A stretch of 64,000 nt of DNA from a virus. The stretch is taken from the IMG/VR virus record IMGVR_UViG_3300032287_001952, positions 4,261 through 68,260 of that record; one strand, given 5' to 3'. A program made the position numbers and the translations under genes. Below are positions 2,209 through 50,923 of the stretch, piece after piece (the stretch's first letter is position 1; every line of letters begins with the position of its first letter). Under the pieces are notes generated by a model, which saw only the letters and a program-made list of their open reading frames with translations, was not told the DNA's origin and searched no databases.

Positions 2209-2952
2209 TTATTTCGACAAGTTACGGACGAACTCGATGAACTTCTCATCGTGTTTCGTACCGAGCTTCACTGTCGGAACGTACCAGCTCCCCATAGAGT
2301 TTGTACGCAACGAGGAAGTCAGCTCGTAACAAGCAGTGTCGATACCAGCACGCAGAGCCAACTGCGAGTCTGTAAAGATCTTCCGACCAGTCTGTTTGTA
2401 AGCCGACTTGGTGAGAAGCCACTGGGCGAGAGCGTAATAGTCCTTGCCGTACTGGAAGGGAAACAAAGCGTGTTCTCCAACTGGGCTTTTGACCAGCACA
2501 ATGCAGGTCATAGCCTCTGAGTAGCGGTCAACACCCTCTTCCGCATCTTGTTCGTTTGCCAGAGCACCACCAGCAGCACGCACGTCACGGATGCTGGAGA
2601 AGTTCTTGGGCATCTCACCAGATCCGAAAGGCAGATCTTGGAGGTAGAATTTTGCAACTCGGGTGAGGGTGATGTGGCAGGGTTTCTTCCCGTCACCGAT
2701 CACGACTTCCCGATTGTAGAGGAAGCTTCCAGCTGGGAAGCTGTTGGACAGCTCGCCAGTCTTGTTGACCAGATTGAGCTTTGGGATGGTCAAATCACTG
2801 CGGGAGAACTCTCCTTGGATCTGGCCGTCCAATCCCTGCACTGGCATTGCGATTTCCGTGCTGGTAGGTTCTTGGACTGCCAGTTCGGTCGTTTCAGCTG
2901 CTTCTTGTTTGATTTGTTGTTTCGTTGTTGGTTTCGCGAATGATGTTTTCAA
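2209..2952 (-). CDS. Putative ssDNA-binding protein
   Basis: D-x-x-IP-x-L-x-L N-terminal motif and C-terminal GSWYVP strand; lies between nuclease and polymerase. Start reassigned to TTG 2952, just after the upstream stop. Confidence 0.5.
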   Translation of the reverse strand: MKTSFAKPTTKQQIKQEAAETTELAVQEPTSTEIAMPVQGLDGQIQGEFSRSDLTIPKLNLVNKTGELSNSFPAGSFLYNREVVIGDGKKPCHITLTRVAKFYLQDLPFGSGEMPKNFSSIRDVRAAGGALANEQDAEEGVDRYSEAMTCIVLVKSPVGEHALFPFQYGKDYYALAQWLLTKSAYKQTGRKIFTDSQLALRAGIDTACYELTSSLRTNSMGSWYVPTVKLGTKHDEKFIEFVRNLSK

Positions 2953-2953
2953 T

Positions 2954-3820
2954 TTATTTATTTTCCTTTTTTCGTTGTAGATATTGAATCTCGTTCCCAC
3001 CCTGCAGAACACCTGCATCGTTGAGTCGATCTTCAATCTCCTGTTTAAGCTTCTCCTTGGAACCTCTCGGTGCCTTATCGGAGTACGCTTTCAGAAGTTG
3101 TGCGACAGAAACTTCCGTCACGGAGGCAAACTCTTCTGGAGTCAGCCTATCCTTGACCAGTTCCCACGTGATCTGAGGATCGGAGACACTACGGCGTCCC
3201 GCCCTAGATTTCAATTCAAATCCTGGGATATCTTCACCCGTCTCGAGTGCGTGCTTTAGGTTCTCTTTCTTGACCTTCTCGCACCACGGCTCAAGCACCC
3301 TGCGGAGGATTTCCGCCTTACCACGAAGCTCTGGTGTAGCCAGTTGCTCTGGGTTGTACAAGTCCAGCAACTCACCATCTGGTGTAAGGCTGGAGAACTT
3401 GCTGGAAATGATGAGAGCTTTCTTGTGCAGTGCCGTGCATGTGGCTTTTGCTCCGCAATAAAGACAAGCCCACTCAGTAGGATTAAGTTCTTTGACGTCG
3501 TGCTTGGCTCTGGCAATTACTGTTGCCACACGCAACTTCATCCGATCCAAATCTACGCTCCTATAGAATGCGTGACGACTCACCATATTCAGTCTTGGCT
3601 GAGCGAATACCACGTCCACCATTTGGACTTCTGGATATTTCTCGAACACTCCGACCGCGTATGCCCACCCCTGAAGATTGTATTCTGCGTCTTCTACCGC
3701 AGTCCAACCAAACTTGGCGTCCCCAATAATCGCTCGATCACCTTTGACCATCACGATGTCGGCAGTTCCGAACGTCGTTCCGTCTAGGATGGAGAGTTTA
3801 AGCTCTTTTTGAATGATCAT
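2954..3820 (-). CDS. DUF2800/Cas4-like PD-(D/E)XK exonuclease, catalytic part
   Basis: FGTADIV...IGDAKFG...NLQGWAYAVG and CLYCGAKATC cluster. Confidence 0.8.
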   Translation of the reverse strand: MIIQKELKLSILDGTTFGTADIVMVKGDRAIIGDAKFGWTAVEDAEYNLQGWAYAVGVFEKYPEVQMVDVVFAQPRLNMVSRHAFYRSVDLDRMKLRVATVIARAKHDVKELNPTEWACLYCGAKATCTALHKKALIISSKFSSLTPDGELLDLYNPEQLATPELRGKAEILRRVLEPWCEKVKKENLKHALETGEDIPGFELKSRAGRRSVSDPQITWELVKDRLTPEEFASVTEVSVAQLLKAYSDKAPRGSKEKLKQEIEDRLNDAGVLQGGNEIQYLQRKKENK

Positions 3821-4067
3821 CTTTTAATTCCTGTTCGAAACTATCGAACAAATCTTTGACCATGTCCACACATCTTTTTTGCTCGTCGTTTAGCTGGGAG
3901 TAGTCCCCAGTTTCAAGAGCTTTGTGCATCATAGTCCCCTCTTCCGCTGCAGCCGAAGAAGGTCCTTCATCTGGTTGCCACCCAGGGCAAGCCTCTCGAT
4001 ACATTAACTGGGATGGTGAGAATTTATGATGTGCACTCACTTGTTTGTCGTCTTGTTTTTGTTTCAT
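3798..4067 (-). CDS. DUF2800 nuclease N-terminal part, as a separate ORF
   Basis: HHKFSPSQ...CPG...AAEEGTMMH is the usual N-terminus of the same family. Confidence 0.75.
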   Translation of the reverse strand: MKQKQDDKQVSAHHKFSPSQLMYREACPGWQPDEGPSSAAAEEGTMMHKALETGDYSQLNDEQKRCVDMVKDLFDSFEQELKDDHSKRA

Positions 4068-5329
4068 ATTGTTTCAATGTCTCCGTCGTTTAGGGTTTCT
4101 ATGTTTTTGAGTTTTGATCTGACTTTCTTCATTACTTGTTCCTCAATTGAGTCAGCCGCAAAAATGATCTTTTGTACAGCTTTAGATTTTGCTCCCGCCC
4201 TGTGAATTCTCCCGAGTGCTTGTTTTAAATCAACGGCAGAGTAGGTGGGACATATGAGCGAGCTCCGAGGGCGTCCCAATGTATCGTGAAGCGATACCCC
4301 TACTCCGCCACTTTGTATCTGGCATACCATCACATGGTTTGCGTCACATTGAAAGTCTGCAATCATCCCCTCTCGCTGGTCGTCTGGTTGCCCTCCCCAG
4401 ATATAACAAGCGTCTTTAAACTTTGTAAGTAAAGTGTCGATCGTGTTTCTAAAGTTGCAGAAGATAACTACGCTTCTCTCCTCGTCTAGCAAAGCCTCCG
4501 CCAAATCGACCAGCACGGGAACTCGGATAAGTTCAGCCTCTTGTCTTGCCCTCAATATTTCCGTCATTGGATGAGGTCGATCCGCGGCCTTGCTGGCTTG
4601 TAGTTCTGCAAGCTTTGCTTGAAGGTCGTCATAAACCCCTTGCACGTTCCCGCAATCATAGGCTTCCGCAAACACTTCGTTATCTGGGAAAGCGTCTCCG
4701 AGTTCCGATATACGTATTCTGCTAGCTTTTTCCCCCATCGATTTGTGAATGTTTGCTAGCTTTGATTTGCCACCAAAATAAGCCAACGCACCCCACGGGG
4801 CTTTCTTCACTCCGTTTTTGATACACCACGGAAAGAAGTCTACGTATTTGTGGAGCCCTAGAACAAACCCAGTCGACCGCATATCTAGCGGGTTCGATGC
4901 GAATGTGGCTGACAACATAAGCGTATAGAACGGACGGCTCGTCACTAGCATTTTCCCATTAAGGCTGTTTGCTCCCTTGCATTTGTGTACTTCGTCCCAG
5001 ATGAGCAAAGTATCTTGCGGTATGTTTGACCATACCCACGCACCTTTCACGAAATCACCAAAACCACTGCTACCAGCTCTTAGCTTTTCGTAATTCAAAA
5101 TAAACATCGGCTCAACTCCAGCCTTCTTGCACCAATCTTTCCAGCTTGGGATAACGGCTTTTGGGCAAATGATGCCTACTGGTTTTCCTAGAGTTTTTGC
5201 AATCCACACTGCTTTAGCCGTCTTACCAGTGCCCGTATCGCTCCAATCTGCTGCGACTCGATGTTCACGCAAACTCTTCAACATATTTTCTGCTGAAGGC
5301 TTCTGCCAATCGTACAAACTAAAACTCAT
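4064..5329 (-). CDS. SNF2-like SF2 helicase
   Basis: DTGTGKT, DEVH, SAT, SGGVGVSL and QALGRIHRAG motifs. Confidence 0.92.
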   Translation of the reverse strand: MSFSLYDWQKPSAENMLKSLREHRVAADWSDTGTGKTAKAVWIAKTLGKPVGIICPKAVIPSWKDWCKKAGVEPMFILNYEKLRAGSSGFGDFVKGAWVWSNIPQDTLLIWDEVHKCKGANSLNGKMLVTSRPFYTLMLSATFASNPLDMRSTGFVLGLHKYVDFFPWCIKNGVKKAPWGALAYFGGKSKLANIHKSMGEKASRIRISELGDAFPDNEVFAEAYDCGNVQGVYDDLQAKLAELQASKAADRPHPMTEILRARQEAELIRVPVLVDLAEALLDEERSVVIFCNFRNTIDTLLTKFKDACYIWGGQPDDQREGMIADFQCDANHVMVCQIQSGGVGVSLHDTLGRPRSSLICPTYSAVDLKQALGRIHRAGAKSKAVQKIIFAADSIEEQVMKKVRSKLKNIETLNDGDIETI

Positions 5330-33768: not shown

Positions 33769-36700
33769 ATGGCTCAGACGATCCCAACGCCTGGTAGTGA
33801 CGCAGTAGTAGCTTCTCAACCCTTGCCTGCTGGTGAATTCCCAGGCCTTGTAGATGCTCTAGGGCTTACTGAACAGACGACAAAACTTTCCGAGGGCTTC
33901 TCTGGTTTGGGTAGCCTAAAGCTTTCCGAGCCAATGACGGATTCTGAGAAGGCTCTTGAGAATCCTTTCTTAAAACTACCTAAAGCCAATCCTAAAGATT
34001 TCATTGATACTGTTAGAAAGGATTGGGAAATCGGTCAAGAGGGCGTCAATATTGATATGGCCACTGACGATTTCGCAACGCAGGTTTTAACGTCTGGTCA
34101 GCCGGGAGACTACAGCCAGTTACAAAACAAGCGTAAGGCTTTGGCGAAATCACAGTACTTTAACCAAGCCGACAATCTGGCTAGCCGAGCTGTCCACGGA
34201 ACTGTGCAGATGTTGCCACCGATGGCTCAAGGACAATTGTCTGGTATTGAGAAGGGTGTTGAACGTGGGATGCAGATGGGACTTATTGGGTCTTCTGGGT
34301 TTATTGCTGGGCCAGAGGTTGGTGCACCGATGGTTACTGCGTTTACGGGTGTCGGAGTTGCTGGTGGTAACCTAGAGGGCTCTTTCAACTACTGGACAAA
34401 GCAAGGCCGAGGAGCGTCGTTTGCGGAGTTGGTAGACGCTGGTGTGAACCAAGTCACTGCCGCAAATATCGCTCAATTTGTTGGCCCAGTTTACGCGGCT
34501 ATTGAATATGCTCAGGTTGGAAAACTCTTGGATGTTGTAGGGGGTAAAAAACTTAAGGGTGGTTTATTGCGTGGGGCAATGCGACAACTTGCGAAGGTTG
34601 TCCCCGCTGGTGCTAAAGTTGCCGCAGAGAAAGTAGCTCAAGTTTCGGCTAGGCCACTTGTAAGGGGTGCTGTCGACGTTGCTGGTGATATATTGGTACA
34701 AGCTGGTGAAGAAGCGGCTCAAGGTGCCGTGTCTCAAGCTGGTACTGAATACGGAAAGACGCAACAACAGCTGATTGCCCAAGGTGCTCGTGATGGGGCT
34801 ATGGAAGTGCTCGCAAACCTAGACCTACCAGAAGCTTCTAAACAAGTACTGTCCCGTGGTTTTGACGAGTTTGCAAGTAGCATTGGGCCGATGGCGGTTC
34901 TTACTGGTGGTGCAAAGGGGACGAACTTCCTTCGTAAAGCCTCATGGGATGGGTTTGTATCCCTAGCGAACGGGGACATCCAGAAAGCCGCAGATCAGCG
35001 TGATGCTGTGGCTAAAGCGGGAGCTCCTCAGACTGCACAAGCTTTGGCTGAAACTGTCTTAACGGAGCCAAGTTCGGTTAAGCCGACAGCAGCGACTGTC
35101 ACACCGACAGCTCCAGTGGTTGCCCCTATCGACGAGCCAGCTCTTGACGCTGAACTCGAAGCCGCTGGTCAAGCACCAGTAGAAGTCGAACAGCCCGAAG
35201 CTCCACAGCCTACTGTGGGTCTCCCTGGTGATGAGCTTGGTGCCAGGATCTTCTCGAACATTCGTTCCCGTAAGCCGATTGCTAAAGCTGATCTTGACCA
35301 GGTTGGTGGATTCTCGTTGTCTTCCGATTGGAAGCTGAACGAAGAGACGGGTAACTTCGAATACCAAGGACCAGTTTATGAAAGAAAAGAAGCTCCGCAA
35401 GTTTCAGTCGCAAAAGCAGAAGCCGCCACAATCGAACAGCCAAAAGTCAAAGCTCCCAAAGCTCAAGCCGTCGCTCCTATCGAAGCCGTTAAGCCAGAGC
35501 CTACTCAAAAAGGTGCAGAAGCTATACCTACTTCATTAGGTGTAAAAGTTTTTCAAGCTCCAGACGGAACTTGGGGCTATCAATTTGATTTTCCAAGTTG
35601 GCGAACAACAGAAGAAGGTATCGAATCAGTAAATAAATCTTTTAATCAAAATCAAGGGATCGCCACAAAAGAAGAAGCTTTAGCTTTAGCAACTGAAGGT
35701 AGAAAAAAAGCGATGGCTGGCACAATAAAAGAAGACGAGAGAGTAGCCACAGCACTAGAAAAACGGGGTGATGTACAAAAAGATGATTTACGGAGGGCTA
35801 GAAAATATCGCAAGGCCGCTGAAGAAGGCCGTAAACTATACGAAAAAGAATACCCAGAAGGAACTGCACCGAAGGTCGAAGCTCCTAAAGTTGAAGCACC
35901 GAAGGTTGAGGCTCCTAAAAACCTAGAACAGTTTATAAATAACTTGCCAACATTTAGTCCCGCTATGAAAAGCGGAGAGAGAGATAAACAACGTTTTAGG
36001 CAAGCTTTGGGCCTGTTGAAAAGCAAAAAGACAATTACCAAAGCAGTTCTCCAAAAAGAACTTAATCTGGGCTCGAATTATGCGGATTGGTTAATGGAAC
36101 AATTAACTCTCTCTGGCGCGGTAAGCGAGCAGATATCTGGTAAAGCACCAAAGGTTGAGGCTCCTAAAGTCAAACAACCAGCTCTTCCGAGGTGGGAAGA
36201 AGTCCAGAAGAACAAGGATCAGATCAAGTTCCTCAAGTCCGTTTTCAAGAAGGCAAACGCCAAGCTTACCAAAGAACAGCAAGTAGCCCCCAAGGTTGGC
36301 TGGAAGCGGAAGGATTTCTACTCGGCTCTGGAACGGATGTATGGTCAGCTCACTCAGCTTGAGTTCAAGCAACCTGAGCAAGTTGCACCACCAGCACCGA
36401 AGGTTGGCGAAGCCCAGAAGCCAACTGCGATCAACGAGGCCGAGCAACGCAGAAAGCTCAAGCTTGCTAACCTGCTAAAGGTATTCGGAAACAAGGATCT
36501 CGATGGTGACCAAACTCTCTTCCGTGATATCGCTATGGCTCAAGCTCGAAAAGTTGCATCGCAGATTGCCACACAATTTCAAAACATAACTGACCCAGAC
36601 GGAGAGATCTACAATGGGTTGATTTCGGCTATTGCCACCCGCCTTAAAAAATCTTTTGATAACAAGACACCAGTATTCTTCAACGAAGCTGGTGAGCCGA

Positions 36701-39700
36701 TTGCTATCAATGACGAGTCAGTAAAGAAGTGGCTGATGAAAGCCGCAGATCGTGCTGGACGAGACGCCGCAAGACGCCAATCCGCACAGAGAGAAATCAA
36801 TATCGAGTTTGGTGGCAAGCCAGCCGAAGGAGTTGTTACTCAACCTGAAGCCGCCAAGGAAGAGGCCAAGCCAGAGGGTATGCAAGTCAAAGAGGTTGCT
36901 CCAGAAGTCAAGGAAGAGCCCCGTGGAATTCGAGCAATTCGAGAAGCCGCTCAAGCTATTCGGGAACAGAGCAGCCCAGAAGCAAAGCTTGTTTTGGATT
37001 GGATCGTGTCTCAGTTGGTTGGGGAAGACTCGGCGTTGGGCAAGATCAAGACCTACAAGGAACTCGCAACCTATCTGTCCAAGGTCGCTAAACGGACGAT
37101 CAGCGACAAACGAGTTGGGTTGACTGTAAACGATGTTGTTAAGAAGCTGGCTGACAATCTTTCGGAGATCGGAATTAAGGTAAACGTAGAAGCCCTTGAG
37201 ATGGCACTTAGCCCCGAGGGTCAGAAAGCCAAGGAACGTCTTGCGGCTGAGGAAGCCAAGGCGAAAGCCTCTCGTGACGAGAGAGTGGCTAAGGCGAACC
37301 TATCCGATCGCGCTAGAAATCTTCGTTCTGGTTATGCAGTAAAAGAGAGGCTTGTGGATGCGGTTGCATCAGCAACCCCAGAAAACAGAGCGAGAATTCA
37401 AAACGAAGTCATATCGTTGGCAGAAGAAGATCTTCTAGCCGATGACGACATCAACAACAGACTCGATAACATCGAGAAAGGATTACCGAATGAAAAGCCA
37501 GCAATTGGACAACCTGTTTCCCGGCGTAGACGCCGAGGCGTTAAACAAGCTAAAGAAGGCGAAGTTCTCGGCGGAACTGGAGAAGGCGTCGAAGGTGCAC
37601 GGGGGACTACCGGCCCTGTCGCAACTGCTGAAGGACAACCCCAACCTGGGGCACGAGGAGCTGAACCAGTCAGTCCACGACCTAGCGGAGCTGGACAGCA
37701 AGTGGGCGGAAAACAGCAAACAACTACGAGAAATGTTTCCGTTGACGTAAAGTTATCTGAAAACAATAGAAGCCCTGCGGTAAAGACTTTGGTCGAAACT
37801 GCCACTTCAAACGGAGTTCCAGTCACATTACAAGATTCTCCAGAAAGTGGATCGGCTGTTGGTGTAGACACCAATCAAGTCGAAGGACAAGAAGTACCGA
37901 TCATCCGAGTTAACCAGAACAAGCTTAAAGAAGTTCGTCGAACACTTGGGCCAAAGGCTTTTGCCGAATGGTCTTGGAGAGCTATCAACCAAGAGATTAT
38001 CCACTTTAGGCATCTCAAGCTTCTTGAGCGTCTGGCCAAAGAGGAAGGTACTGATTACAAGAGCTACCTCAAGAAAGAAGCCAAGAGGATCGTACAGATC
38101 ATCAAGAGGCAGCGTGGTCTTCGCAAGAGGATCGAGGCTATCTACAACAACGGCGAGAAGATGGATGACTTCAACCTTGCGTTCGAGTTCACCCGAATGC
38201 TTGTCGAAGAGAAGATGATGGGCGGAATTACAGAGTCCTCCTATATGGACATCGCCAAGGTTCTTAACTCTGTGGATGCCGAAGGTCGAGGATTTATCTT
38301 TAGGTTTATGGAGCTTGTTCGGGATTTGATGTACGGATTGACTGGGCGTACCGCAGCGGAGACCAAGTTCCTTCGTGCAACGGCTGACGCTATCATCAGC
38401 GAGCAACGCAAAGTTATGCGGGACTTATACAACCCGACTGAAAAACTCCCCGTACAAGTAAATTTCTATACACCAAAGGAAAAGGTTATCGTTGGTTCAG
38501 CCGCTGACCGCAAAGCGTCTGAAGAGGAGATCAAACAAGATAGTGGCTTGAACCGAGCCAGTATGGCTTTCCTACGTGAATACGCCAGAGAGCTCGGAAT
38601 CAAGGAGCCTATGGGTCAGCGGAAGATGGAGGTTCGTGACGAAAAGACTGGTAAGATTTCAATTAAGAAACTCTCGTTCCCAGTTTGGAAGAAGCCCGAC
38701 TACGCAAAGGCGATCAAAGAGAAGCTCAAGGAACTCGGTAAGAAGCCAAAGGAACTTGGTGCCGCAATGCCTATGCGGTTCAAGACCGAGTATGCCTTCC
38801 AGCAGATCGATCGATCATTTGGGGCTAAGAGGGGAATCTTCAAGGGTCTGACTGTCGATAACAACGATACGCTTCCCTGGGAGAATCTGAAAGCGAAGAT
38901 CCTTAAGGGGACGAGTAAGGCTGAAGCCAATTGGGTTCTTCCGACAATGGAAGCTCTTGTCCGAAACGGACGTGTCAACGTTGATATGGCTGTTGAGGCG
39001 ATGCAAGCTTTGGCGAAAAACAAGATAACCGTAAAAAAACTTAGTGAAGAAACAACAGCTATTCAAAATCAACCAAAAGAAATTCAAGCTTTCATTAGGC
39101 TAGAAGAAGCTAAGAACCAAATTAGGCATGAAGCTGAATCGCAATTTACAGACGTAGAAGAAGCTATCAGAATTGCTGGAAGTTTACTGTATTTAGATAC
39201 CTACGACATATTTTCTAAAAATAAATTGCTAATGGATGATTACCGCTATCGCCAAACAAAGCTTGAAATAGAGGAAACACTTAAAAATGGTCTAAATAAT
39301 ACTTCTTTTGACGAACGAGAAATAAAAAAGCTTGGGGATAAGTTAGCAAACGTCTACGCATCTTTTGCAAAAGATCTTTATAATTTGGATAGTAGAGATT
39401 ATCTTTCATCGTTTGGGTTTGGGAGATCACAAATAGAGGCTGTGGATCAGGCATTTTCTATCGTAAGCAATCTTAAAAATGCAGACGAGCAACAGAAAGT
39501 TTTTGCAAGAATAGGTTTCTATATAGCAAGATCGGGAGGGATAGAGGTATCTGACTTGGGATTAGACCAAAGAGCATCCGCAAGATATAAATTTGTGAAC
39601 CCAAAGCCTTTTTCGGAAATGGAGGATGTGCGGGAAATTTTGGTTAAGACCCCAATTGGTGCTGTAGCTAAAGCAAAATCACACTTCGAAGATAAAGATG

Positions 39701-42700
39701 TTGTTGGTTTTGGGAGAATGTACACAACAAAACAAGGTGATAAAACTGTAACATTTTTATTCGAGGCACAAACGGATGCGTCAACGTCACCCTTAAACGA
39801 GATGGCAGACGAAAACCATCCAATGACCGCTCTGGATTATACCCCGGTATTTGAAGCAGAACTTGAAGACTTGAAAAACGCTTTGCAAGAAATCGTCGGA
39901 GAAAAACGACCTATCTATATGGACGAGGTTGGGAATCTTGCGTACAACGGAAATTTCAAGTCAATCACACCAACCTCAGTTACATCGAAATACACAATTG
40001 CTAGACATAAAGAAGGTAATCTTTACGAAGTTAATGGGGATCTAGGTTTTCATATTCTCGAAAAGTCTAGAACAGATAAAAATTTGGCAAATAGGGTAAG
40101 GCCATATTTAAAAGATAGCCAAACAGCTTCCATGATTGAGTGGGATAGGATGTTAACAGAAGCCGCTCCTCTGATAAGTGCATACGAATCACTCGTATTA
40201 AAGAACGCTATTGCGGATGCCATATCTAAAAATCACGATGCTATTGCAATTACCGACGATGGAACGGCAGCAATGACAGAGGGTCATCCGCAAATAAATG
40301 ACGGCATGCGGGCTCACTATGGGGTTCGAAATGGGAGTCTTCATAACTTAGCTAAAAAGCTTACTGGAGATACTGGAACTCCATTTAATGACGGATCTTC
40401 GATTTATGTGTATGAGCAGGAACAAGCCGATAAACTCGAAACACCATTCGAAGTTTACAGATTCCCGAAGAAAGAGGTAACTGGGGTATCCTATAGCCTG
40501 GATAAAGTGAAGGCTCTCGGGGATGCAAGCGATGTTTACAATATCCTCGGAGCCGCATTGCCAACCGATCGGCCTTACTGGCTGAAAGATGACGGAGAGG
40601 TTCTTGATGTCGAAGAGAATGCTCTCGTCGATATGAACTCAATCGGTAGCCACTCCGAAGCCGCAGTTCAGTTCCTCCAGGAGAACGATCCAGAGAACCC
40701 TTTCTTGATGGAGTGGTCTCTTTTAGATCCGTTAGAAAAGAAGGATCGTCAGCAGTTGCCAGTCCAAGAGATGTTCAACAGAGGTTGGCTCCGTGTTATC
40801 GGTGACGGGTTTAACTTGTTCTTTGAGGGCAATCCGAACAAGACCCAGTTAGACAAGCTGTTCGAGGCCGCAATCGAGGATGAGGTTAAGCTGATTCACG
40901 ACAAGACCGGATTGTCGGGTAGGCCAAAATCTAATCTACTATATGAGCCACCGCTCGAGGACGAACTTAACGCCGCAATGCCTCGTCGGGGCTTCTCTTC
41001 TAGTGAGCCTAGATTCAGTAAGTCTTGGAAAGCTCTTCCAGATTCCGTAGCTGGTTTGACTGAAGTATACAAAATGAAGCGTGGAACTAACGATGTCCGC
41101 CTATACCGAGATGAGATGGGCGATACATTCGTAGTCAAGCGTGGGCAATCGCAGGAGCAATTTGAAAATGAAGTAGCCGCCGACAATGTTTATCGAATTC
41201 TAAACTACCCAGTGCCCCCTTCGAGGCTGATCACAGATGAGAATGGTGAAACAGCCAAGATCGCCAATTACGTGGCTGGTCCGATACTCGCAGATTTCCA
41301 AGAGAATATGGAAGAAGCAGACCCAGATGCTGTTAAAACAGTGTTTGAGGAACTTGGTGATGGGCTTTTGATTGACGCCTTCTTGTTTAACTATGACGTC
41401 CTAGGGGAAGGTCTGGACAACATTGTTGTCGCTCACGAAGAAATTACAGAAGAAGACGGGCTGGCATTCCCAGAGCCGTTGATCAAATACACGGCATACA
41501 GAATCGATAATGGCGGAACTCTGGACACTCGGGCAATGGGTCTCAAGAGAGACGAACCATTCTTCTACGACTCGTTCTCTAGGCTGGCCGACAAATACCC
41601 GCAGTTTAATCTCACAGCCACGGATCTTGTGGCACAGCTTTCCGATATCATACTCAACAGCGATGCTATTCTAAATGCAATCCCAGCCAGACTACGACCT
41701 ATGATGGCTCAAAGGATCCAATGGATGGCAGATCAGCTAAGTGCGGTGGACACAATCCCTTCAGCAATCGGGTACTCTGACGAGGAGGTCACAGCACATT
41801 TCGCCAAATTGGCTAAGGAGATGGACTCCATTAAGGTTGTTCGGAACGCTCAAGGAGAGCTGATAAACGAAAAGACTGGTGAGCCTTCTAGGATTTATCT
41901 AATCGACACAAACGGAAAAACAATTGGCTTTATCCCGAAGTCCGAATTTAGGTACAAGCTGGAGAGAACTAAAGCTTTCAAGATGTGGTTTGGGGATTGG
42001 GAGAATGCACCAGAAGCTTTGGGGACAAGCAAGATGCTTGATGAGGCTGGTGAGCCCATGATGATGTATCACGGGACAAACTGGACTACGAAAGAGTCGA
42101 TGTACATGTTTAAGGACGACATCGATAAAGAAACACAAGGGTTGAATCTATACCGCAGACGTTTCTCGCAAGGCAACCTATTCCGAGGAACCTGGACTTC
42201 AACAAGCCGTAAGTTCTCCGAGGACTGGGCAAACGAAACCTCGGCTGGGGAATACGCTCAACAGGTTGTCATACCAGTATACGTAAAGAGCACAAACCCA
42301 TTTGACCCACGTAACTCAGATCACAACGCCAAGTTGGTAAACTACCTTGAAGAGAAGTACTCTGCTGATTCTGGGGTCAACGCCTTTATCCCGACTCGTG
42401 ATATGCGTGTGGCTATGGAGTTCGGATTCTACGACTGGTCTTACTTTGAAACGACTCGCCCAGAGTACCCATCCATGGGTTCAGACTTTGAAGAGATGGA
42501 AGAAGACTCTCGTCGTAAAGAGTTCTTTGCGAAACATCCATATCCAGTTCTTGAAGCAATTATTAATCTTGGGTTCGACGGACTATGGGTTAGGGAAAAA
42601 GGTCTTGGGTATTCTGGGTCTCTCGAAAGTGGCCCAAAGAATTTAGTTCAAGAACTGGAGATCATTCGTAGGAGTGATGACAAGAGCACGGAGAAACAGA

Positions 42701-45700
42701 CGATCCAAAATTTGAAAGAAGATGTCATCGCTTACAATAACAACTCGGTCTGGAATCATTTGTCCTTCCGATCTGACGGCATCAAGTCATCGGCTAATAC
42801 GGGTAAGTTTAAGGCTGATAAACGTAAAAAGTTCAAGCCTTACCAGGAAGCCAAACGTTTTGTAAACTTAGTAACCCGTAATGGTAAGACCCTCTGGAAC
42901 GAGTTCCAGAAGGGTGGTAAGACATTTGCTTCCTACGACTCAGCAGAGAACCTAGTAACTTACGCCTACTCAGATCCGAGTACTCTGGCAAAGGCTGGAA
43001 TCGAGAAGACTGAGATGAAGAACGGGGTTGTGTTCTTTAGTGCTCGGTCGGTTGAGGGTGTGCGTAGCCCAGACCGCAAGCCTACCGATATTCTCGGAGC
43101 CGCGATGCCCCGCCAGTTTGGAGTTCGTATTAGGGATAAGATGCAGGCCGATGCTTACGAGAGGCTTAAGAACTTAACTTACGAGCCGATCCCGGATAGT
43201 ATGGTTCAAGAAGAAGCCGAAGCGTATCTAGAGAAACACGGAATCCGTGGTGCTATGGATGCTACAATTTCCAAGTCTAGTCCGCTCGAGCACGGATCTC
43301 GTGAGCTGTTGGCTCAGATGATTATCCTAAAACTTAACGAGCAGTATAGGAAGACCAAGGACGCAAGAGTTCTAGAAGAGCTGATCGACTACACCGATAC
43401 ATTCTTATCGATCACTTCTGAAGCTGGACGTGCTCTTAGGCAGTTATCTTTCTGGGACAAGCTGTCACCCGAGGGGATGTTGATGCTCTACAAGAAGAAG
43501 CTGGATGAATCAAATCGTGAGACCCGTGACCGATTCAATGAATTTTTTGCGAAGGTAAAGCGTGAGCTATCGACGTTGCCAGCTGGAGCACTGGATCAAG
43601 CCTTGAAGAGTATGGAAGGTTTGCTGGGTAAAGCCGATAAAGCCGCAGAAGAATCTCGTAAGAAGCTTGCTACCAGCAACACTATGACCTTCTGGGAAAA
43701 CTTCTCAAAGCAGATTGGCGATAGCCTTGTCCAGAAATCTCGAGAGCAACTCGATATCGCTGAGGAAGAGCTTGCCCGTACCGCTGGTGGAGAGGCGACG
43801 CCCGAGGGTGAATTGGCTAAGAATAAGGTCAACAACGCAAAGACGATCAACCAGGCAGCTCAAGAAATGAGCCGCAATATCAAGCAGATGTTCCTAGCTC
43901 TTGCCAAAGAACAAGGTAAGAACATTCGCGATCCTCGGGTTATCACGGACGAAGAGTTCGCCAATAAGACAGACGAAGAGATTGCGAAGATTCAGCAAGC
44001 GGAGCGGGACTCTAAGCAAGCACAGAAGTTTACTGATATGTTGGCGAGATGGCCGAAAGCCTTGCAAGCTTGGCAAACGGCGACAGCTGCGATTCGTGCT
44101 CAGACATCCGTCAATCCAGAATTGGCTACTATGTTCCAGAGTTTTCTAGACCTCACTCTTGAGACTCCTTTTACGATGCCACAACTCAAACGATTCTTGT
44201 CTCTGAGAGGCGTTAAACTAGAAGACCTAATTCGTGAGCATTACCAAGAAGGGAAGTTGGCTCAAAACGCATACGATGTAGCAAGAGAGATGGTCGAAAA
44301 AGCGGGTCTTGGGGCATGGGAAGAAGAAATTGGGGTGGACGTAAAAGAGGGCGATAAGTTTTTTGAATACGAAAAGCGTGAAGAGGATATGGCTAAAGAA
44401 GAGCCATCTAAGCGTGCACCAACCAAATCAATGTCTGAGCGTCTTACGCAAGCCCTTGCGTCTCAAATTGAGAAATATGCAGAAGCGGAGACAGAAAAGA
44501 AGCTTAACCGATTGATTGATTCTTACGCTGACAAACGTCTTGAACCATCTCTCAAACGCTTTATGAAGCGTATGGTTCAGTACCAAGCTTTGGGTTTATT
44601 CAGCAACTCCTATGCCTGGAACGAGTTCCAGAAACAAGAAGGACTGGATAAAGTAAAGCCAGAGGTTGTGAATCAGATCCTCGATATTATGGGGAAAGCC
44701 CAGAAGCTTACCGGGTTTAGGAAAGAAGAGGCATACGCCGATGCCCTTTCACTTATCTCTTACCACACGAACACGGGCGTTTGGAACTTCACCAAGTCTT
44801 GGTGGTACTTGAGCATATTGTCGGGCTTCACTACTCAGGTCGCCAATATTGCGGGCAATGCCTACAACACGATGCTGTTGACTATCCCAACAATTGGTAA
44901 GCATCTTGTCGCTGTAACTGTTAACCCAGAGCGGAGTAAGGCAATCGTTAAACAAATGTTTAGGGCAATGTCTCTGTCGCTACAGGATTTTGGATACTTG
45001 CTCACGACTGGTAGGGTTGGAACTCGCAAATCAGATAACCCCTTCTTCTCGCGGGCAAGCACAGATTACTTCGAAGTTATTGCGAAGAATACCCCGTATC
45101 GAGCCGCAAGGATTTCTGCTACCACAGCCGCTATGGTGCGTAGAGTTATGTCGGCAGTTGATATGATGTTTTACAACTTTAACAAAGAAGTTTACCTATT
45201 TGATTCGGCATACAATGCCGCAAAGAAATCTGGGCTGAAGGGGTCCGAGGCTACAGCTAAAGCTCTTGAGGTAACTTTCCGAAGTTCGCAGGCGTTGCAA
45301 AACGCTCTCAACTTAGCTATAGGGGAAGGTTATGTGGTCGAAGGAGAACCTCTCGGGTTCTATAAAGCCTTAACCAAAATAGAATCCCCGAAGGCCAAAC
45401 TTGAACGGGCAAAACAAAAAATAGAGCAATCGATTCGTATCCAAGAGATCATCGACGCAAACGTTACTGGGTCTGCGGAGAGTTCAAGGGTTGCTATTGG
45501 GGCGCAAGTATACGGAGAAGAGCTTACGTATAACGAGGAGCCCAAGGGTTTCTTGGGTGCTGTGCATAGGTCTATCTCTGCCCTTTCGGTTAAGTATGGT
45601 TTGGTATCTGTGCCGATCCCTTTCACAAAGATCGTAGCAAACGTATGGAACCAAGGTCTCGACGCTGCTGGTCTCGGGATTTTTAGGTCTGGGAAGTTAG

Positions 45701-46803
45701 CCCACGGAAAATTGGCTAAAGCTTTCCCATTCCTTAAGGTTCTTGAACGATTCGAGATGAAAGGTCTTAAAGGTTCAGCTGACGAGGTTCAAGCTCAGAA
45801 GGATATGATGTTCGCAAGATCATTTAATGCTTTTGTCGCATTAGGTATTATTACACTCCTCGATCGGGTTCTTTGCGGTCAGTATGAAACTTATGGGTTT
45901 GAACTTTGCATAAACGGTCCTGGTCCTAAAGAGCCAGCACAAAAAGAACTTCTTAAGAATCGCTTAAGCTGGAAACCAAATTCTCTTTTCCTTCGCTTAC
46001 CAGGCATAGGCGGCTTCTATCTTAGTTATATGTTGTCGCCTTTGGCTATTCCGTTGGCTGGTTTCGGATTAATAAAGGATAACGAGATTTATAACTACTA
46101 CGCCAAGAAATCACCAAAGGACGCTTCTCTAGCTATGGCTCATAGACTGTTGACTGTTCCAATGGAGATGAACTTCTTGTCGGGTCTTGGGGATATGTTT
46201 GAAATCTTAAGCCCAAGTAACCCAGAGACCGCTCTTGCTAAAGCCAAGTCATTCCTTTCAAGAATGGGTTCATCAATGCTTGTCCCGAACTTCTTTAGGG
46301 ATGTCGACCAGCTTATTGTGTCTAGCCTGCCGGGTGTGCTTAACCCAAGGACGGCTAGAGAAGACATTATACAAGCAGCATTTATTTCGAATACCCCAAT
46401 CATTCGGCAAATGTACGGAAGTGCTGAGCTTGATATCTTAGGTCAACCAATTGAGATGACTTCACGAGTTGTAAGCGTTGCTGGGAAAGATACTTTGGTT
46501 GATGTACTCATCCAAAAGAATGCTCTCCCGACTGCTCCCAAAAAAGACAAATTGCTTGGTCTTGTCCCAATGGACGATACTCAATACGCACAGTATCGTG
46601 AATACAGAGCAAAACAACTTGGGGAAGATCTTAACACGCCAGAAATGATTGAAACCCTATCTAGAATGGAACCTGGAATGGCTCAGATGTATGTTCAGAA
46701 ATATACCCAGAAAGCTAGCCAATTGGCTAAAGCAAAGATTCTGAGGGGAAGCCCAGAGATACTAAAAGAGGCAAGAGAAACAAAAGCTAAACAGATTAAA
46801 TAG
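33769..46803 (+). CDS. Giant polyvalent ejection protein (4344 aa)
   Basis: Hydrophobic G/A-rich N-terminus with EEAAQ; central effector domains (see findings); helical C-terminus with LSG..T...N..GN and PF.K...N motifs typical of large ejection proteins. Confidence 0.85.
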   Translation: MAQTIPTPGSDAVVASQPLPAGEFPGLVDALGLTEQTTKLSEGFSGLGSLKLSEPMTDSEKALENPFLKLPKANPKDFIDTVRKDWEIGQEGVNIDMATDDFATQVLTSGQPGDYSQLQNKRKALAKSQYFNQADNLASRAVHGTVQMLPPMAQGQLSGIEKGVERGMQMGLIGSSGFIAGPEVGAPMVTAFTGVGVAGGNLEGSFNYWTKQGRGASFAELVDAGVNQVTAANIAQFVGPVYAAIEYAQVGKLLDVVGGKKLKGGLLRGAMRQLAKVVPAGAKVAAEKVAQVSARPLVRGAVDVAGDILVQAGEEAAQGAVSQAGTEYGKTQQQLIAQGARDGAMEVLANLDLPEASKQVLSRGFDEFASSIGPMAVLTGGAKGTNFLRKASWDGFVSLANGDIQKAADQRDAVAKAGAPQTAQALAETVLTEPSSVKPTAATVTPTAPVVAPIDEPALDAELEAAGQAPVEVEQPEAPQPTVGLPGDELGARIFSNIRSRKPIAKADLDQVGGFSLSSDWKLNEETGNFEYQGPVYERKEAPQVSVAKAEAATIEQPKVKAPKAQAVAPIEAVKPEPTQKGAEAIPTSLGVKVFQAPDGTWGYQFDFPSWRTTEEGIESVNKSFNQNQGIATKEEALALATEGRKKAMAGTIKEDERVATALEKRGDVQKDDLRRARKYRKAAEEGRKLYEKEYPEGTAPKVEAPKVEAPKVEAPKNLEQFINNLPTFSPAMKSGERDKQRFRQALGLLKSKKTITKAVLQKELNLGSNYADWLMEQLTLSGAVSEQISGKAPKVEAPKVKQPALPRWEEVQKNKDQIKFLKSVFKKANAKLTKEQQVAPKVGWKRKDFYSALERMYGQLTQLEFKQPEQVAPPAPKVGEAQKPTAINEAEQRRKLKLANLLKVFGNKDLDGDQTLFRDIAMAQARKVASQIATQFQNITDPDGEIYNGLISAIATRLKKSFDNKTPVFFNEAGEPIAINDESVKKWLMKAADRAGRDAARRQSAQREINIEFGGKPAEGVVTQPEAAKEEAKPEGMQVKEVAPEVKEEPRGIRAIREAAQAIREQSSPEAKLVLDWIVSQLVGEDSALGKIKTYKELATYLSKVAKRTISDKRVGLTVNDVVKKLADNLSEIGIKVNVEALEMALSPEGQKAKERLAAEEAKAKASRDERVAKANLSDRARNLRSGYAVKERLVDAVASATPENRARIQNEVISLAEEDLLADDDINNRLDNIEKGLPNEKPAIGQPVSRRRRRGVKQAKEGEVLGGTGEGVEGARGTTGPVATAEGQPQPGARGAEPVSPRPSGAGQQVGGKQQTTTRNVSVDVKLSENNRSPAVKTLVETATSNGVPVTLQDSPESGSAVGVDTNQVEGQEVPIIRVNQNKLKEVRRTLGPKAFAEWSWRAINQEIIHFRHLKLLERLAKEEGTDYKSYLKKEAKRIVQIIKRQRGLRKRIEAIYNNGEKMDDFNLAFEFTRMLVEEKMMGGITESSYMDIAKVLNSVDAEGRGFIFRFMELVRDLMYGLTGRTAAETKFLRATADAIISEQRKVMRDLYNPTEKLPVQVNFYTPKEKVIVGSAADRKASEEEIKQDSGLNRASMAFLREYARELGIKEPMGQRKMEVRDEKTGKISIKKLSFPVWKKPDYAKAIKEKLKELGKKPKELGAAMPMRFKTEYAFQQIDRSFGAKRGIFKGLTVDNNDTLPWENLKAKILKGTSKAEANWVLPTMEALVRNGRVNVDMAVEAMQALAKNKITVKKLSEETTAIQNQPKEIQAFIRLEEAKNQIRHEAESQFTDVEEAIRIAGSLLYLDTYDIFSKNKLLMDDYRYRQTKLEIEETLKNGLNNTSFDEREIKKLGDKLANVYASFAKDLYNLDSRDYLSSFGFGRSQIEAVDQAFSIVSNLKNADEQQKVFARIGFYIARSGGIEVSDLGLDQRASARYKFVNPKPFSEMEDVREILVKTPIGAVAKAKSHFEDKDVVGFGRMYTTKQGDKTVTFLFEAQTDASTSPLNEMADENHPMTALDYTPVFEAELEDLKNALQEIVGEKRPIYMDEVGNLAYNGNFKSITPTSVTSKYTIARHKEGNLYEVNGDLGFHILEKSRTDKNLANRVRPYLKDSQTASMIEWDRMLTEAAPLISAYESLVLKNAIADAISKNHDAIAITDDGTAAMTEGHPQINDGMRAHYGVRNGSLHNLAKKLTGDTGTPFNDGSSIYVYEQEQADKLETPFEVYRFPKKEVTGVSYSLDKVKALGDASDVYNILGAALPTDRPYWLKDDGEVLDVEENALVDMNSIGSHSEAAVQFLQENDPENPFLMEWSLLDPLEKKDRQQLPVQEMFNRGWLRVIGDGFNLFFEGNPNKTQLDKLFEAAIEDEVKLIHDKTGLSGRPKSNLLYEPPLEDELNAAMPRRGFSSSEPRFSKSWKALPDSVAGLTEVYKMKRGTNDVRLYRDEMGDTFVVKRGQSQEQFENEVAADNVYRILNYPVPPSRLITDENGETAKIANYVAGPILADFQENMEEADPDAVKTVFEELGDGLLIDAFLFNYDVLGEGLDNIVVAHEEITEEDGLAFPEPLIKYTAYRIDNGGTLDTRAMGLKRDEPFFYDSFSRLADKYPQFNLTATDLVAQLSDIILNSDAILNAIPARLRPMMAQRIQWMADQLSAVDTIPSAIGYSDEEVTAHFAKLAKEMDSIKVVRNAQGELINEKTGEPSRIYLIDTNGKTIGFIPKSEFRYKLERTKAFKMWFGDWENAPEALGTSKMLDEAGEPMMMYHGTNWTTKESMYMFKDDIDKETQGLNLYRRRFSQGNLFRGTWTSTSRKFSEDWANETSAGEYAQQVVIPVYVKSTNPFDPRNSDHNAKLVNYLEEKYSADSGVNAFIPTRDMRVAMEFGFYDWSYFETTRPEYPSMGSDFEEMEEDSRRKEFFAKHPYPVLEAIINLGFDGLWVREKGLGYSGSLESGPKNLVQELEIIRRSDDKSTEKQTIQNLKEDVIAYNNNSVWNHLSFRSDGIKSSANTGKFKADKRKKFKPYQEAKRFVNLVTRNGKTLWNEFQKGGKTFASYDSAENLVTYAYSDPSTLAKAGIEKTEMKNGVVFFSARSVEGVRSPDRKPTDILGAAMPRQFGVRIRDKMQADAYERLKNLTYEPIPDSMVQEEAEAYLEKHGIRGAMDATISKSSPLEHGSRELLAQMIILKLNEQYRKTKDARVLEELIDYTDTFLSITSEAGRALRQLSFWDKLSPEGMLMLYKKKLDESNRETRDRFNEFFAKVKRELSTLPAGALDQALKSMEGLLGKADKAAEESRKKLATSNTMTFWENFSKQIGDSLVQKSREQLDIAEEELARTAGGEATPEGELAKNKVNNAKTINQAAQEMSRNIKQMFLALAKEQGKNIRDPRVITDEEFANKTDEEIAKIQQAERDSKQAQKFTDMLARWPKALQAWQTATAAIRAQTSVNPELATMFQSFLDLTLETPFTMPQLKRFLSLRGVKLEDLIREHYQEGKLAQNAYDVAREMVEKAGLGAWEEEIGVDVKEGDKFFEYEKREEDMAKEEPSKRAPTKSMSERLTQALASQIEKYAEAETEKKLNRLIDSYADKRLEPSLKRFMKRMVQYQALGLFSNSYAWNEFQKQEGLDKVKPEVVNQILDIMGKAQKLTGFRKEEAYADALSLISYHTNTGVWNFTKSWWYLSILSGFTTQVANIAGNAYNTMLLTIPTIGKHLVAVTVNPERSKAIVKQMFRAMSLSLQDFGYLLTTGRVGTRKSDNPFFSRASTDYFEVIAKNTPYRAARISATTAAMVRRVMSAVDMMFYNFNKEVYLFDSAYNAAKKSGLKGSEATAKALEVTFRSSQALQNALNLAIGEGYVVEGEPLGFYKALTKIESPKAKLERAKQKIEQSIRIQEIIDANVTGSAESSRVAIGAQVYGEELTYNEEPKGFLGAVHRSISALSVKYGLVSVPIPFTKIVANVWNQGLDAAGLGIFRSGKLAHGKLAKAFPFLKVLERFEMKGLKGSADEVQAQKDMMFARSFNAFVALGIITLLDRVLCGQYETYGFELCINGPGPKEPAQKELLKNRLSWKPNSLFLRLPGIGGFYLSYMLSPLAIPLAGFGLIKDNEIYNYYAKKSPKDASLAMAHRLLTVPMEMNFLSGLGDMFEILSPSNPETALAKAKSFLSRMGSSMLVPNFFRDVDQLIVSSLPGVLNPRTAREDIIQAAFISNTPIIRQMYGSAELDILGQPIEMTSRVVSVAGKDTLVDVLIQKNALPTAPKKDKLLGLVPMDDTQYAQYREYRAKQLGEDLNTPEMIETLSRMEPGMAQMYVQKYTQKASQLAKAKILRGSPEILKEARETKAKQIK
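37490..37750 (+). CDS. Nested out-of-frame small protein (86 aa)
   Basis: AAGGA 7 nt upstream of the ATG; amphipathic helical sequence; the host frame becomes G/R/Q/P low-complexity over the same interval. Confidence 0.55.
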   Translation: MKSQQLDNLFPGVDAEALNKLKKAKFSAELEKASKVHGGLPALSQLLKDNPNLGHEELNQSVHDLAELDSKWAENSKQLREMFPLT

Positions 46804-49426: not shown

Positions 49427-50923
49427 TTATTTGTTACCTTTCATGTGTTGGTCAATACGATTCCCGATCCACTGCATACATGGAACAGCCATTGAATTGC
49501 CAAGGGCTTTGTAGCGTGGTCCATCGGGACAATCCTTAGCGGACTTATTCCGCCAAGGGATACGGGTGTGGTCAACTGGGAAGCCTTGAAGCTTCTCACA
49601 TTCCGACGGCATGATTCTCCTAACAGCCGATCGAACACGTGTGTCCAGCACACCACCCGTGTGATTGATATCTGAAGCCGCCGACGACAGAGACTGACTC
49701 AAATCGCTGACGGATTGGTTGTAGGCATCGATAGCTTGAACTAGCGGGACGTTACCACCGCCAGTACCATAGCGTGAAACACAACTGGGTGCAACTTCAA
49801 GCGGTCCAGTTATACGGGAATCATTGGGGTGATTCTCATAAAGGACGGCATGCTTGTCACCTTTGGTTAAGGTTGGACAAGGGTCACTAGGTTTACCTAT
49901 ACCTAACCCATTACCCTTACCATCCGACTTGTCTCCGTGTTTACCAGAGTGTCGAGTGGCTTGGTCATGGATAGGAACAACGTAAGGTTGCTCAGTCTGC
50001 TTGATGAGGGTTGGTGCGATCTCGTGATTGATCGACGCATTAGCTTGCCCATCGCTAGCACAGATAGCTCCTTGGGCTACAAGCAATCGACCAGTGGTCA
50101 AGTCTTGGTTGCCCATGCCCTTGTAATCTCTGGCCAGCAGAGTATCGCAAGGTAGGCTAGGGTCGTTCCAATAAGTAGGAACGATATGTCCAGCCTTGAC
50201 GCTCTGATGGGTTAGCTTTCCAGCTCCGCACTCGGTGTCGAGGGCTCCGATACAACTTGCATCAAAGCCTCTTTCAGCCTCGGAGGAAGTTCCTTCCCCC
50301 GCTTTTCTGCTCGGCGCAATATCCCTGCGCAACCCTTCGAACTCAAATAGAAGTGAGGAGGGATCTCCTTGGTCTGGAGCACATGCGACAACAAACACAC
50401 GCTTGCGTCGTTGGGCCAAGCCGAAGTATTGGGCATCAAAGCACCGCCAAGCGACTGACCTTTTGGGTCCGTACACACAACCAGAGTCCGACCATCTTTT
50501 CCCTGACGGCTTGAGCTCACACTCTTCTCCCGACAAGCTTCCCAAAAAGCAACCGAAGGCGTTGTCTTTGGAGCTGAGGACTCCTGGTACGTTCTCCCAG
50601 ATAACCCATTTGGGGTTGAAGTGGTCGGCCATTTTGACGTAGGTGAGGGTGAGTCCGCCTCTTGGATCGTCGAGTCCTCCACGGACTCCAGCGACGCTGA
50701 ACGCTTGACACGGTGTTCCTCCGACCAAAACGTCAACTGGTTCTGCGAATTTCCATGATTCATATTTTGTCATATCTCCTAGGTTGGGAACCTCTGGCCA
50801 GTGATGCTTCAGCACCGCTGACGGGAAAGGTTCGATTTCCGAAAACGCAAGAGGCTTCCATCCTAGCTTCTCCCAAGCTACGGATGCCGCCTCGATGCCC
50901 GAACAAACTGACAGATACTTCAT
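49427..50923 (-). CDS. C5-cytosine DNA methyltransferase (alpha chain)
   Basis: CSGIEA (I), GGTPCQ (IV), WENVPG (VI), QRRKR (VIII) and GNS (X). Confidence 0.93.
   Translation of the reverse strand: MKYLSVCSGIEAASVAWEKLGWKPLAFSEIEPFPSAVLKHHWPEVPNLGDMTKYESWKFAEPVDVLVGGTPCQAFSVAGVRGGLDDPRGGLTLTYVKMADHFNPKWVIWENVPGVLSSKDNAFGCFLGSLSGEECELKPSGKRWSDSGCVYGPKRSVAWRCFDAQYFGLAQRRKRVFVVACAPDQGDPSSLLFEFEGLRRDIAPSRKAGEGTSSEAERGFDASCIGALDTECGAGKLTHQSVKAGHIVPTYWNDPSLPCDTLLARDYKGMGNQDLTTGRLLVAQGAICASDGQANASINHEIAPTLIKQTEQPYVVPIHDQATRHSGKHGDKSDGKGNGLGIGKPSDPCPTLTKGDKHAVLYENHPNDSRITGPLEVAPSCVSRYGTGGGNVPLVQAIDAYNQSVSDLSQSLSSAASDINHTGGVLDTRVRSAVRRIMPSECEKLQGFPVDHTRIPWRNKSAKDCPDGPRYKALGNSMAVPCMQWIGNRIDQHMKGNK
50212..50763 (-). 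CDS. Nested alternative-frame methyltransferase beta polypeptide
   Basis: LSHVLQ..IPPHFYLSSKGCAGILRRAEKRGKELP, as in the nested beta chain of M.EcoHK31I-type enzymes. Confidence 0.7.
   Translation of the reverse strand: MNHGNSQNQLTFWSEEHRVKRSASLESVEDSTIQEADSPSPTSKWPTTSTPNGLSGRTYQESSAPKTTPSVAFWEACREKSVSSSRQGKDGRTLVVCTDPKGQSLGGALMPNTSAWPNDASVCLLSHVLQTKEIPPHFYLSSKGCAGILRRAEKRGKELPPRLKEALMQVVSEPSTPSAELES

Follow-up and report, generated by a model that had tools for sequence, protein, structure and literature searches.

What function is served by a short peptide that recurs at the module borders of a single giant phage protein is the question raised by the locus described here. The locus lies on a 64,000-nucleotide stretch of DNA, referred to as the window, which was analysed as a whole (bases 4261-68260 of the 68,260-bp virus record IMGVR_UViG_3300032287_001952 of IMG/VR, a record with direct terminal repeats). 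A giant open reading frame (ORF) within it encodes a protein (P0001) with a full-length size of 480 kDa. Its modules are ordered as an N-terminal part with a metallopeptidase (MPTase)-like domain, a GNAT-like cassette (cassette 1), a small domain (cassette 2), a kinase with an ADP-ribosyltransferase (ART; cassette 3) and a C-terminal helical and hydrophobic module (Table 1). Several biochemically unrelated effector domains are carried by one phage polypeptide, as in polyvalent proteins sensu PMC5512222, and P0001 is best read as one of these phage proteins, a multi-effector polyprotein of virion type. An earlier note on this DNA had proposed that the peptide is a processing or docking signal releasing effectors after injection, a recombination handle for the exchange of cassettes, or both.

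A repeated peptide at the borders of modules

The pattern L[GN]AA[ML]P was found in four copies in P0001, with Leu codons at nt 38755, 40546, 40966 and 43093 (aa 1663, 2260, 2400 and 3109). These are the positions given in the earlier note, the heptamers quoted there beginning one codon before the Leu codon. Shuffling the residues of the protein 2,000 times gave a mean of 0.0035 copies (maximum 1), and no further copy was identified in six frames of the window. Likeness between the copies was found to extend to both sides, with an acidic or hydrophobic residue before the core and P-R-R/Q-F/G after it at sites 1, 3 and 4, the consensus being [D/E]-x-[L/I]-G-A-A-[M/L/V/I]-P-R-R-[F/G]. A 12-column position-specific scoring matrix (PSSM) built from instances in the family scored the four sites at 27-35 bits, compared to a best of 13.7 bits among 200 shuffles; the matrix is circular for these four sites, and its informative part is the absence of other matches, with nothing reaching at least 12 bits in six frames of the rest of the window. 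Even in relaxed form, the motif is missing from the other 41 ORFs tested in the window, among them those of the presumed region of capsid, portal and scaffold genes.

A search for full-length homologues retained 27 proteins (2,665-4,219 aa) of 1,602 candidates scored, forming three clades with ~74-93%, 50-56% and 36-39% identity to P0001. The motif was present at sites 3 and 4 in all 27 homologues and at site 2 likewise in all 27 (20 identified by regular expression, and seven as VIGAAIP split by the alignment), while at site 1 it was present in each of the nine that possess cassette 1. It persists down to 36-39% identity, and although length variants occur in the distant clade (IGASPMRF, IGAPAMPRRGF and LGAAEVRPRRFG), a core of [L/I]-G-small-small ... 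P-R-R is constant across the clades with these variants included. The same pattern was observed at seven viral-contig loci and eight metagenome-contig loci, several of which are the same contigs as those of the homologue proteins. Shorter or split forms of the giant protein gave 11 matches, mostly fragments. Two relatives of the C-terminal module with 22% identity (P0037 and P0039) lack the motif, with P0037 possessing GVGPAPRR before its ART-like part. Five IMG/VR contigs (L005-L009, 30-100 kb) match P0001 only over ~100 residues where the ART region begins, with 34% identity. These contigs contain no ORF of at least 800 aa under code 11, and may be recoded or differ in architecture.

The position of the motif was examined on two AlphaFold2 (AF2) models, covering aa 1290-2420 (1,131 residues) and aa 2385-3560, made with 26-row alignments and of moderate quality (mean predicted local distance difference test, pLDDT, of 56.9 and 59.2, respectively). 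Motifs 1-3 lie in coil in stretches 368-399, 963-979 and 1076-1131 of the first model, and motifs 3 and 4 in coil in stretches 1-34 and 708-761 of the second, all with pLDDT below 50. The motif blocks themselves have pLDDT values of 25-35 at all four sites and stand between better-folded parts. The motifs were thus found at domain borders, as the earlier note had claimed; in both models they lie in coil instead of inside folded domains, and among homologues they are kept at every border in 27/27.

Possible proteolytic processing and the alternatives closest to it

A restricted, peptide-selected and linker-borne motif that travels with the only mobile cassette is the expected look of a dedicated processing site, and equally of any functional linear motif. 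Judged from sequence, the probability that the motif is a cleavage site, whichever protease acts on it, falls a little short of an even chance. It is possible, and tentatively proposed as the best of the readings, that the motif is an endoproteolytic processing site of the polyvalent protein that is cut by the atypical MPTase-like domain embedded in the same polypeptide. Autoprocessing of polyvalent proteins by embedded MPTases, with the release of domains, is predicted in passages of PMC5512222 (Iyer, Burroughs, Anand, de Souza, Aravind 2017).

Cutting at the four motifs would give five products (aa 1-~1665, ~1666-2262, ~2263-2402, ~2403-3111 and ~3112-4344), either in the capsid or after ejection. 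The likeliest enzyme would be the MPTase-like domain, which ends ~7 residues before the first site and would act in cis at its own C-terminus and in trans at the remaining sites; the confinement of the motif to one protein would fit such a dedicated enzyme. The edges of cassette 1 would fall inside the motif because every gain or loss of a module would take one copy of the site with it. Should the scissile bond follow ...LGAA, C-termini resembling the ssrA ...LAA degron would be left, which presumably could time the decay of the released effectors, although this is speculation.

The earlier note had described the region upstream of the cassettes as zincin-like, a claim that was borne out in part. 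On the first AF2 model (model numbering, pLDDT 65-80), the domain consists of a helix (47-58), strands (63-67, 75-77 and 89-92), a helix with E120 and H123 (106-136) and a helix with the invariant E148 (141-158). This topology, judged by eye and not by structural alignment, agrees with the verbal description of the MPTase core in PMC5512222, namely an N-terminal helix, a three-stranded sheet, the motif helix and a helix with a Glu ligand. Furthermore, 13/27 homologues read HETVH at the position of the HExxH motif. The upstream domain is plausible as a zincin-like domain but unproven, as P0001 itself departs from the canonical active-site sequence and searches by sequence and fold listed no zincin.

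A profile search with the domain against 1.84 billion representatives returned eight proteins at E <=0.001. Five of these are members of the family, P0041 and P0043 are large, distantly related proteins that have EExxH but lack the motif, and P0042 looks like a repeat-protein false positive. In the ESM Atlas, the domain was found in unnamed clusters and, at rank 23, in one cluster in which 18% of members have LPD23, which is a lead only. Complex prediction between the domain and a 41-residue motif-4 peptide returned 'no answer' (0.00 in two runs, without controls), which speaks neither for nor against binding.

A number of observations weigh against processing by the embedded domain. The sequence QEIIH stands in place of HExxH in P0001, and the first His is missing from 14/27 homologues (7/27 with QExxH and 7/27 with EExxH). 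By clade, the readings are QEIIHFRH in that of the window, EEVVHF(K/R)Y in the middle and HETVHNVH in the distant clade, the only one with a canonical HExxH, and conservation of the motif is no poorer in the clades that lack the first His. The two remote relatives from the profile search read EEMSH and EEIIH. The domain may therefore not be an active zincin in the window clade. No zincin was listed by Pfam, by PDB sequence profiles or by Foldseek (PDB) and VIA, the last two run with the 1,131-residue multi-domain model, and hhalign of the domain with aa 2130-2448 of the N4 virion RNA polymerase (vRNAP) gave a probability of 0.2%; none of these outcomes amounts to a true negative. As about a third of residues in both models have pLDDT below 50, the location of motifs in such stretches is weak support, and the placement of the four copies in predicted disordered linkers at module borders is supportive, not decisive. 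Other linkers, for example that between kinase and ART, are without the motif, and other insertions or deletions (aa 587-709, 716-803, 1764-1932 and 2007-2105) are not bounded by it. The window phage has no close cultured relative: tblastn with the C-terminal 2,838 aa of the protein gave short and weak matches in six records, and with the N-terminal 1,662 aa it matched none.

Scarcely less probable than cutting by the embedded domain is a short linear motif that stays uncleaved. Such a motif might dock or tether the protein to a chaperone, a host factor, the portal or the inside of the capsid, or it might be a conserved hinge with which each module starts. Any linear motif would appear as a conserved island within disordered linkers, and according to passages of PMC5512222 the N4 vRNAP, a virion protein bearing an MPTase, is packaged uncut. 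However, a docking peptide has no obvious need to be present at every module border or to travel with an inserted cassette. A hydrophobic residue followed by three small residues, then a hydrophobic residue with Pro and basic residues, is also a composition typical of polyprotein cut sites.

It is unlikely that the motif is cleaved by a different enzyme, either a prohead or maturation protease that is not recognizable by sequence or a host protease. The missing first zinc-binding His of the embedded domain in the window clade would be accounted for in this way, and a prohead protease that cuts ejection proteins of giant phages at a short motif is described in parts of PMC10052503. A prohead protease normally also cuts capsid- or scaffold-type proteins, however, while here the motif is absent, even in relaxed form, from the other ORFs of the window. 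A prohead-protease motif common to head proteins was thus not found, the relaxed motif being missing from the 41 other ORFs and the PSSM finding nothing of at least 12 bits in the remaining six-frame sequence. No protease family was identified by Pfam on ten neighbouring ORFs or by PHROGs on twenty, which is inconclusive as most of these match nothing.

Mobility of cassette 1 and selection on the peptide

Cassette 1 is the only module that is present or absent as a unit, with edges that lie inside the motif. In 16 of the 18 homologues without it, the empty slot is marked by a single chimeric motif (...ELGAA|LPTDRPYW). The other two (P0013 and P0014) have two intact motifs 2 residues apart in its place (TLGAALP-xx-LGASMPTDRPYW), an arrangement also observed at loci L004/L016 (aa 1487-1500). 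On a tree of the downstream backbone (28 tips, ten with the cassette), presence of cassette 1 requires seven changes, compared to a mean of 8.4 for shuffled labels. Its sequence was also found to be incongruent with the backbone: P0007 and P0001 share 95% identity over the backbone and 54% over the C-part of cassette 1, while the corresponding values for P0008 and P0018 are 39% and 84%. Because of these seven changes and this incongruence, the cassette 1 region is taken to recombine often. Recent transfer of the cassette between the window phage and L017 is not supported, as third-position identity among identical residues is 25-62% in cassette and flanks alike.

The check put forward in the earlier note, whether cassettes vary exactly between motifs among homologues, gave a positive answer only for the presence or absence of cassette 1. 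Cassettes 2 and 3 are constant as units in 27/27 homologues, and the allelic swap of cassette 1 between P0001 and P0007 has its breaks within the cassette itself (~aa 1745 and ~2240) and away from the motifs, which limits any reading based on cassette exchange. No alternative cassette was found in any slot among the 27 proteins, the viral-contig loci that encode a near-full relative (4/9 and 7/7 of two sets making up 16 loci) or eight metagenome loci; the remaining five of the set of nine match only the ~100-residue ART stretch, without a long ORF.

The DNA core shared by the copies, gccgc(a/g)(a/t)tgcc, was correctly described in the earlier note, with the four copies reading GCCGCAATGCC, GCCGCATTGCC, GCCGCAATGCC and GCCGCGATGCC in order and GCCGC being common to all of them. 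As only 21% of Ala codons in the giant gene are GCC, this common GCCGC looks special at first. However, among the five lineages for which DNA was available, motif codons vary synonymously at every position, with Gly encoded by GGT, GGA, GGC or GGG and the M/L/V/I position by ATG, TTG, GTG, CTC, TTA, CTT, ATC or GTT. The constraint is thus on the peptide and not on the DNA. The first codon of Ala-Ala pairs was found to be GCS (GCC or GCG) in 26/33, 44/49, 25/35, 25/35 and 28/31 cases in the genes of these lineages. Furthermore, the 5-base palindrome GCWGC is two-fold depleted across positions 1-64000 of the window (56 observed, compared to 116.3 +/- 8.8 expected from 100 dinucleotide shuffles, all of which gave at least 56), which suggests avoidance of a host restriction site. 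This depletion leads Ala-Ala pairs to take GCC or GCG as their first codon, and the common DNA core is therefore a by-product of the peptide and of GCWGC avoidance. By these sequence comparisons, selection acts on the motif as a peptide.

These results bear directly on the proposal that selection favoured the motif as DNA, namely as a microhomology handle through which cassettes are exchanged, which we consider very unlikely. It is favoured by the gain and loss edges of cassette 1 falling in the repeat, by the tree changes and backbone incongruence described above, and by the GCCGC common to the four window copies. Against this, codons differ among lineages and also among copies within other genomes; the GCC-GCN core reflects the general Ala-Ala usage of these genes together with GCWGC depletion; the P0001/P0007 swap breaks away from the motifs; and sites 3 and 4 are conserved equally well although nothing varies there. 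The DNA is conserved no further than the peptide and a genome-wide codon-pair bias require, and the handle put forward in the earlier note was therefore set aside.

About equally improbable is a signal or relic of separate translation (GGAG-N5-ATG acting as an in-frame Shine-Dalgarno sequence and start codon, or the former MP... start of fused genes). Window sites 2 and 4 do read GGAGCCGC(A/G)(T/A)TG, and an initial MP is common among the genes of this phage, three small ORFs starting MPLGR among them. However, other lineages encode the Gly by GGT, GGC or GGG, and several have CTC, TTA, CTT, ATC or GTT at the M position, none of them a usual start codon; as the codons at these two positions are not conserved, an internal start was rejected as a general function. 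A relic of fusion would not remain conserved at 36-39% overall identity.

Four small, basic ORFs on the forward strand (at 61749, 61994, 62407 and 46989) were identified, three of which begin with MPLGR and one with MPLSR, and larger genes at 13788, 15256 and 24522 (+) begin with MP without a visible Shine-Dalgarno sequence upstream. The residues following the motif (MPRR, MPRQ and MPMR) resemble the MPLGR/MPLSR starts, which may be a coincidence or a common N-terminal feature.

Modules, genomic setting and related systems

Table 1. Features of the giant ORF, with nucleotide positions in the window.
Feature	Position	Strand	Details
Giant ORF (P0001)	33769..46803	+	4,344 aa; follows tail-fibre-like genes and precedes a lysozyme-like gene in the late structural block
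FtsK-gamma-like winged helix (aa 740-794)	35986..36150	+	Pfam PF09397, E 0.0011, below cut-off
MPTase (zincin)-like domain (aa 1322-1655)	37732..38733	+	Putative active-site helix QEIIHFRH; E1409, H1412 and E1437 invariant
Motif 1, ELGAAMP (aa 1662-1668)	38752..38772	+	10-residue block pLDDT 32
Cassette 1 (aa 1669-2258)	38773..40542	+	Conserved N-part; GNAT-like fold aa ~1744-2259; absent from 18/27 homologues
AT-rich helical insertion in GNAT-like fold (aa 1764-1932)	39058..39564	+	GC 0.351, GC at third codon positions (GC3) 0.26 (lowest stretch); variable or absent in homologues
Motif 2, ILGAALP (aa 2259-2265)	40543..40563	+	10-residue block pLDDT 35
Cassette 2 (aa 2266-2398)	40564..40962	+	133 aa, strongly conserved TDRPYW...GWLRV.GDGF; motif-flanked in every homologue
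Motif 3, ELNAAMP (aa 2399-2405)	40963..40983	+	10-residue blocks pLDDT 27-32 (two models)
Protein-kinase-like domain (actin-fragmin kinase / CtkA / HipA-like; ~aa 2424-2664)	41038..41760	+	Kinase fold in cassette 3
ART-PolyVal ADP-ribosyltransferase match (aa 2758-2860)	42040..42348	+	Pfam PF18760, cassette 3
Motif 4, ILGAAMP (aa 3108-3114)	43090..43110	+	10-residue blocks pLDDT 25-26
C-terminal module (aa 3115-4344)	43111..46800	+	Long helices, then two hydrophobic helices (aa 4013-4037, 4084-4102)

The whole of P0001 matched no PHROGs family. Matches in BFVD, at E 2e-6 to 1e-3 for entries under the name 'large polyvalent protein associated domain' and otherwise to uncharacterised phage proteins, give no function. 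The winged helix sits in an 88-aa segment (aa 716-803, window 35914-36177) between APKVE repeats, which is missing from nearly all homologues, with P0005 keeping most of it. This segment is a second mobile module, bounded by repeats different from the LGAAMP motif. The GNAT part of cassette 1 filled the match list of a structure search (VIA wide) with the 1,131-residue model, and the cassette was provisionally assigned a GNAT-like fold and is a putative acetyltransferase. It lies in AT-richer DNA, as reported in the earlier note, with a GC content of 0.407 (GC3 0.355) compared to 0.467 for the whole gene, which would fit a foreign origin.

Cassette 2 was found to be the best-conserved part of the variable region, with 61-69% identity across clades whose backbone identity is 39-57%. 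Its invariant residues are D2267, H2295, E2305, D2346 and E2353, with P0018 possessing a divergent allele of the first half. No usable match to this cassette was obtained in the ESM Atlas, nor any from the structure search (VIA wide) on the model. In cassette 3, the match to PF18760 scored 31.8 bits (gathering cut-off 31.2, E 2.8e-7) and covers positions 1-71 only of the 140-position profile; this family is precomputed for 25/27 homologues. The C-terminal module has distant relatives in other large phage proteins.

The genes upstream of the giant ORF match tail-fibre and virion-structural PHROGs and a lysozyme-like gene lies downstream, all in a same-strand late block, with the large terminase gene situated further upstream of it. 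This late-block position and the hydrophobic C-terminal helices are the context in which P0001 is presumed to be packaged in the virion and ejected with the DNA into the host. A 498-aa protein encoded at 49427-50923 (-) matches a DNA methyltransferase family (phrog_116, E 2.6e-87), and such a methylase, if packaged or expressed early, would suit an anti-restriction theme.

Neither polyvalent proteins with ART, kinase and GNAT domains nor the hypothesis that they are processed is new. As with those described in PMC5512222, P0001 is a very large phage protein in which unrelated effectors are strung together, of ART-PolyVal, kinase, GNAT-like and FtsK-gamma-like classes named there, with an MPTase-like domain. 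It differs in the defined peptide at every module border, the main text of PMC5512222 giving no cleavage motif ('linker' and 'processing site' each occurring 0 times), and in its atypical putative peptidase with Q or E for the first His in P0001 and 14/27 homologues. The defined, conserved inter-module peptide is what is new, as none was found described by full-text literature searching or in the passages of PMC5512222.

Three other systems offer functional parallels. MARTX toxins are likewise giant proteins with an effector array, unstructured segments with a short conserved cut site at Leu and an embedded protease (passages of PMC2900308), and their effector content varies between strains (PMC2900308 and PMC5555677, in part). 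Theirs is a cysteine protease domain (CPD), in contrast to P0001, for which neither Pfam nor the fold searches listed a CPD (folding having covered aa 1290-3560) and whose family has no invariant Cys among the 27 homologues. P0001 is moreover a phage protein and not a secreted bacterial toxin, with a bacterial target cell and no InsP6 trigger, so that the analogy is functional only. In giant phages, packaged and ejected proteins are cut at a short consensus by the prohead protease (SPN3US gp245, phiKZ and T4 gp21), as outlined in PMC10052503. There, capsid and scaffold proteins have the same motif and a gene of its own encodes the protease, while here only one protein possesses the motif and the neighbouring ORFs scanned gave no prohead protease family. 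The prohead proteases of T4 and phiKZ have consensus cut motifs. Finally, eukaryotic RNA-virus polyproteins share an embedded protease and small-residue cut sites in linkers, an analogy also drawn in PMC5512222; here, by contrast, a double-stranded DNA (dsDNA) phage makes the protein late, presumably for pre-made delivery, and there is no homology.

Polyvalent proteins are widespread in phages and plasmids, and their cutting by embedded peptidases was proposed in 2017 (passages of PMC5512222). The short conserved linker peptide gives exact places to look and makes this autoprocessing hypothesis directly testable, although the case is inferential and comes from a small family of uncultured phages. 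If confirmed, the motif could predict the mature products of metagenomic phage proteins and reveal new effector cassettes, and it would explain how modules are gained and lost without loss of function. It is conceivable, though with reserve, that a dsDNA phage has here a plug-and-play polyprotein system complete in itself, in which an atypical zincin with Q or E for its first ligand cuts a dedicated ~10-residue site at every border. Were it true, any cassette bringing one copy of the site could be inserted and then released in the infected cell, and the system would be a counterpart in bacterial viruses of MARTX toxins and RNA-virus polyproteins, with a cleavage code defined for the first time in polyvalent proteins.

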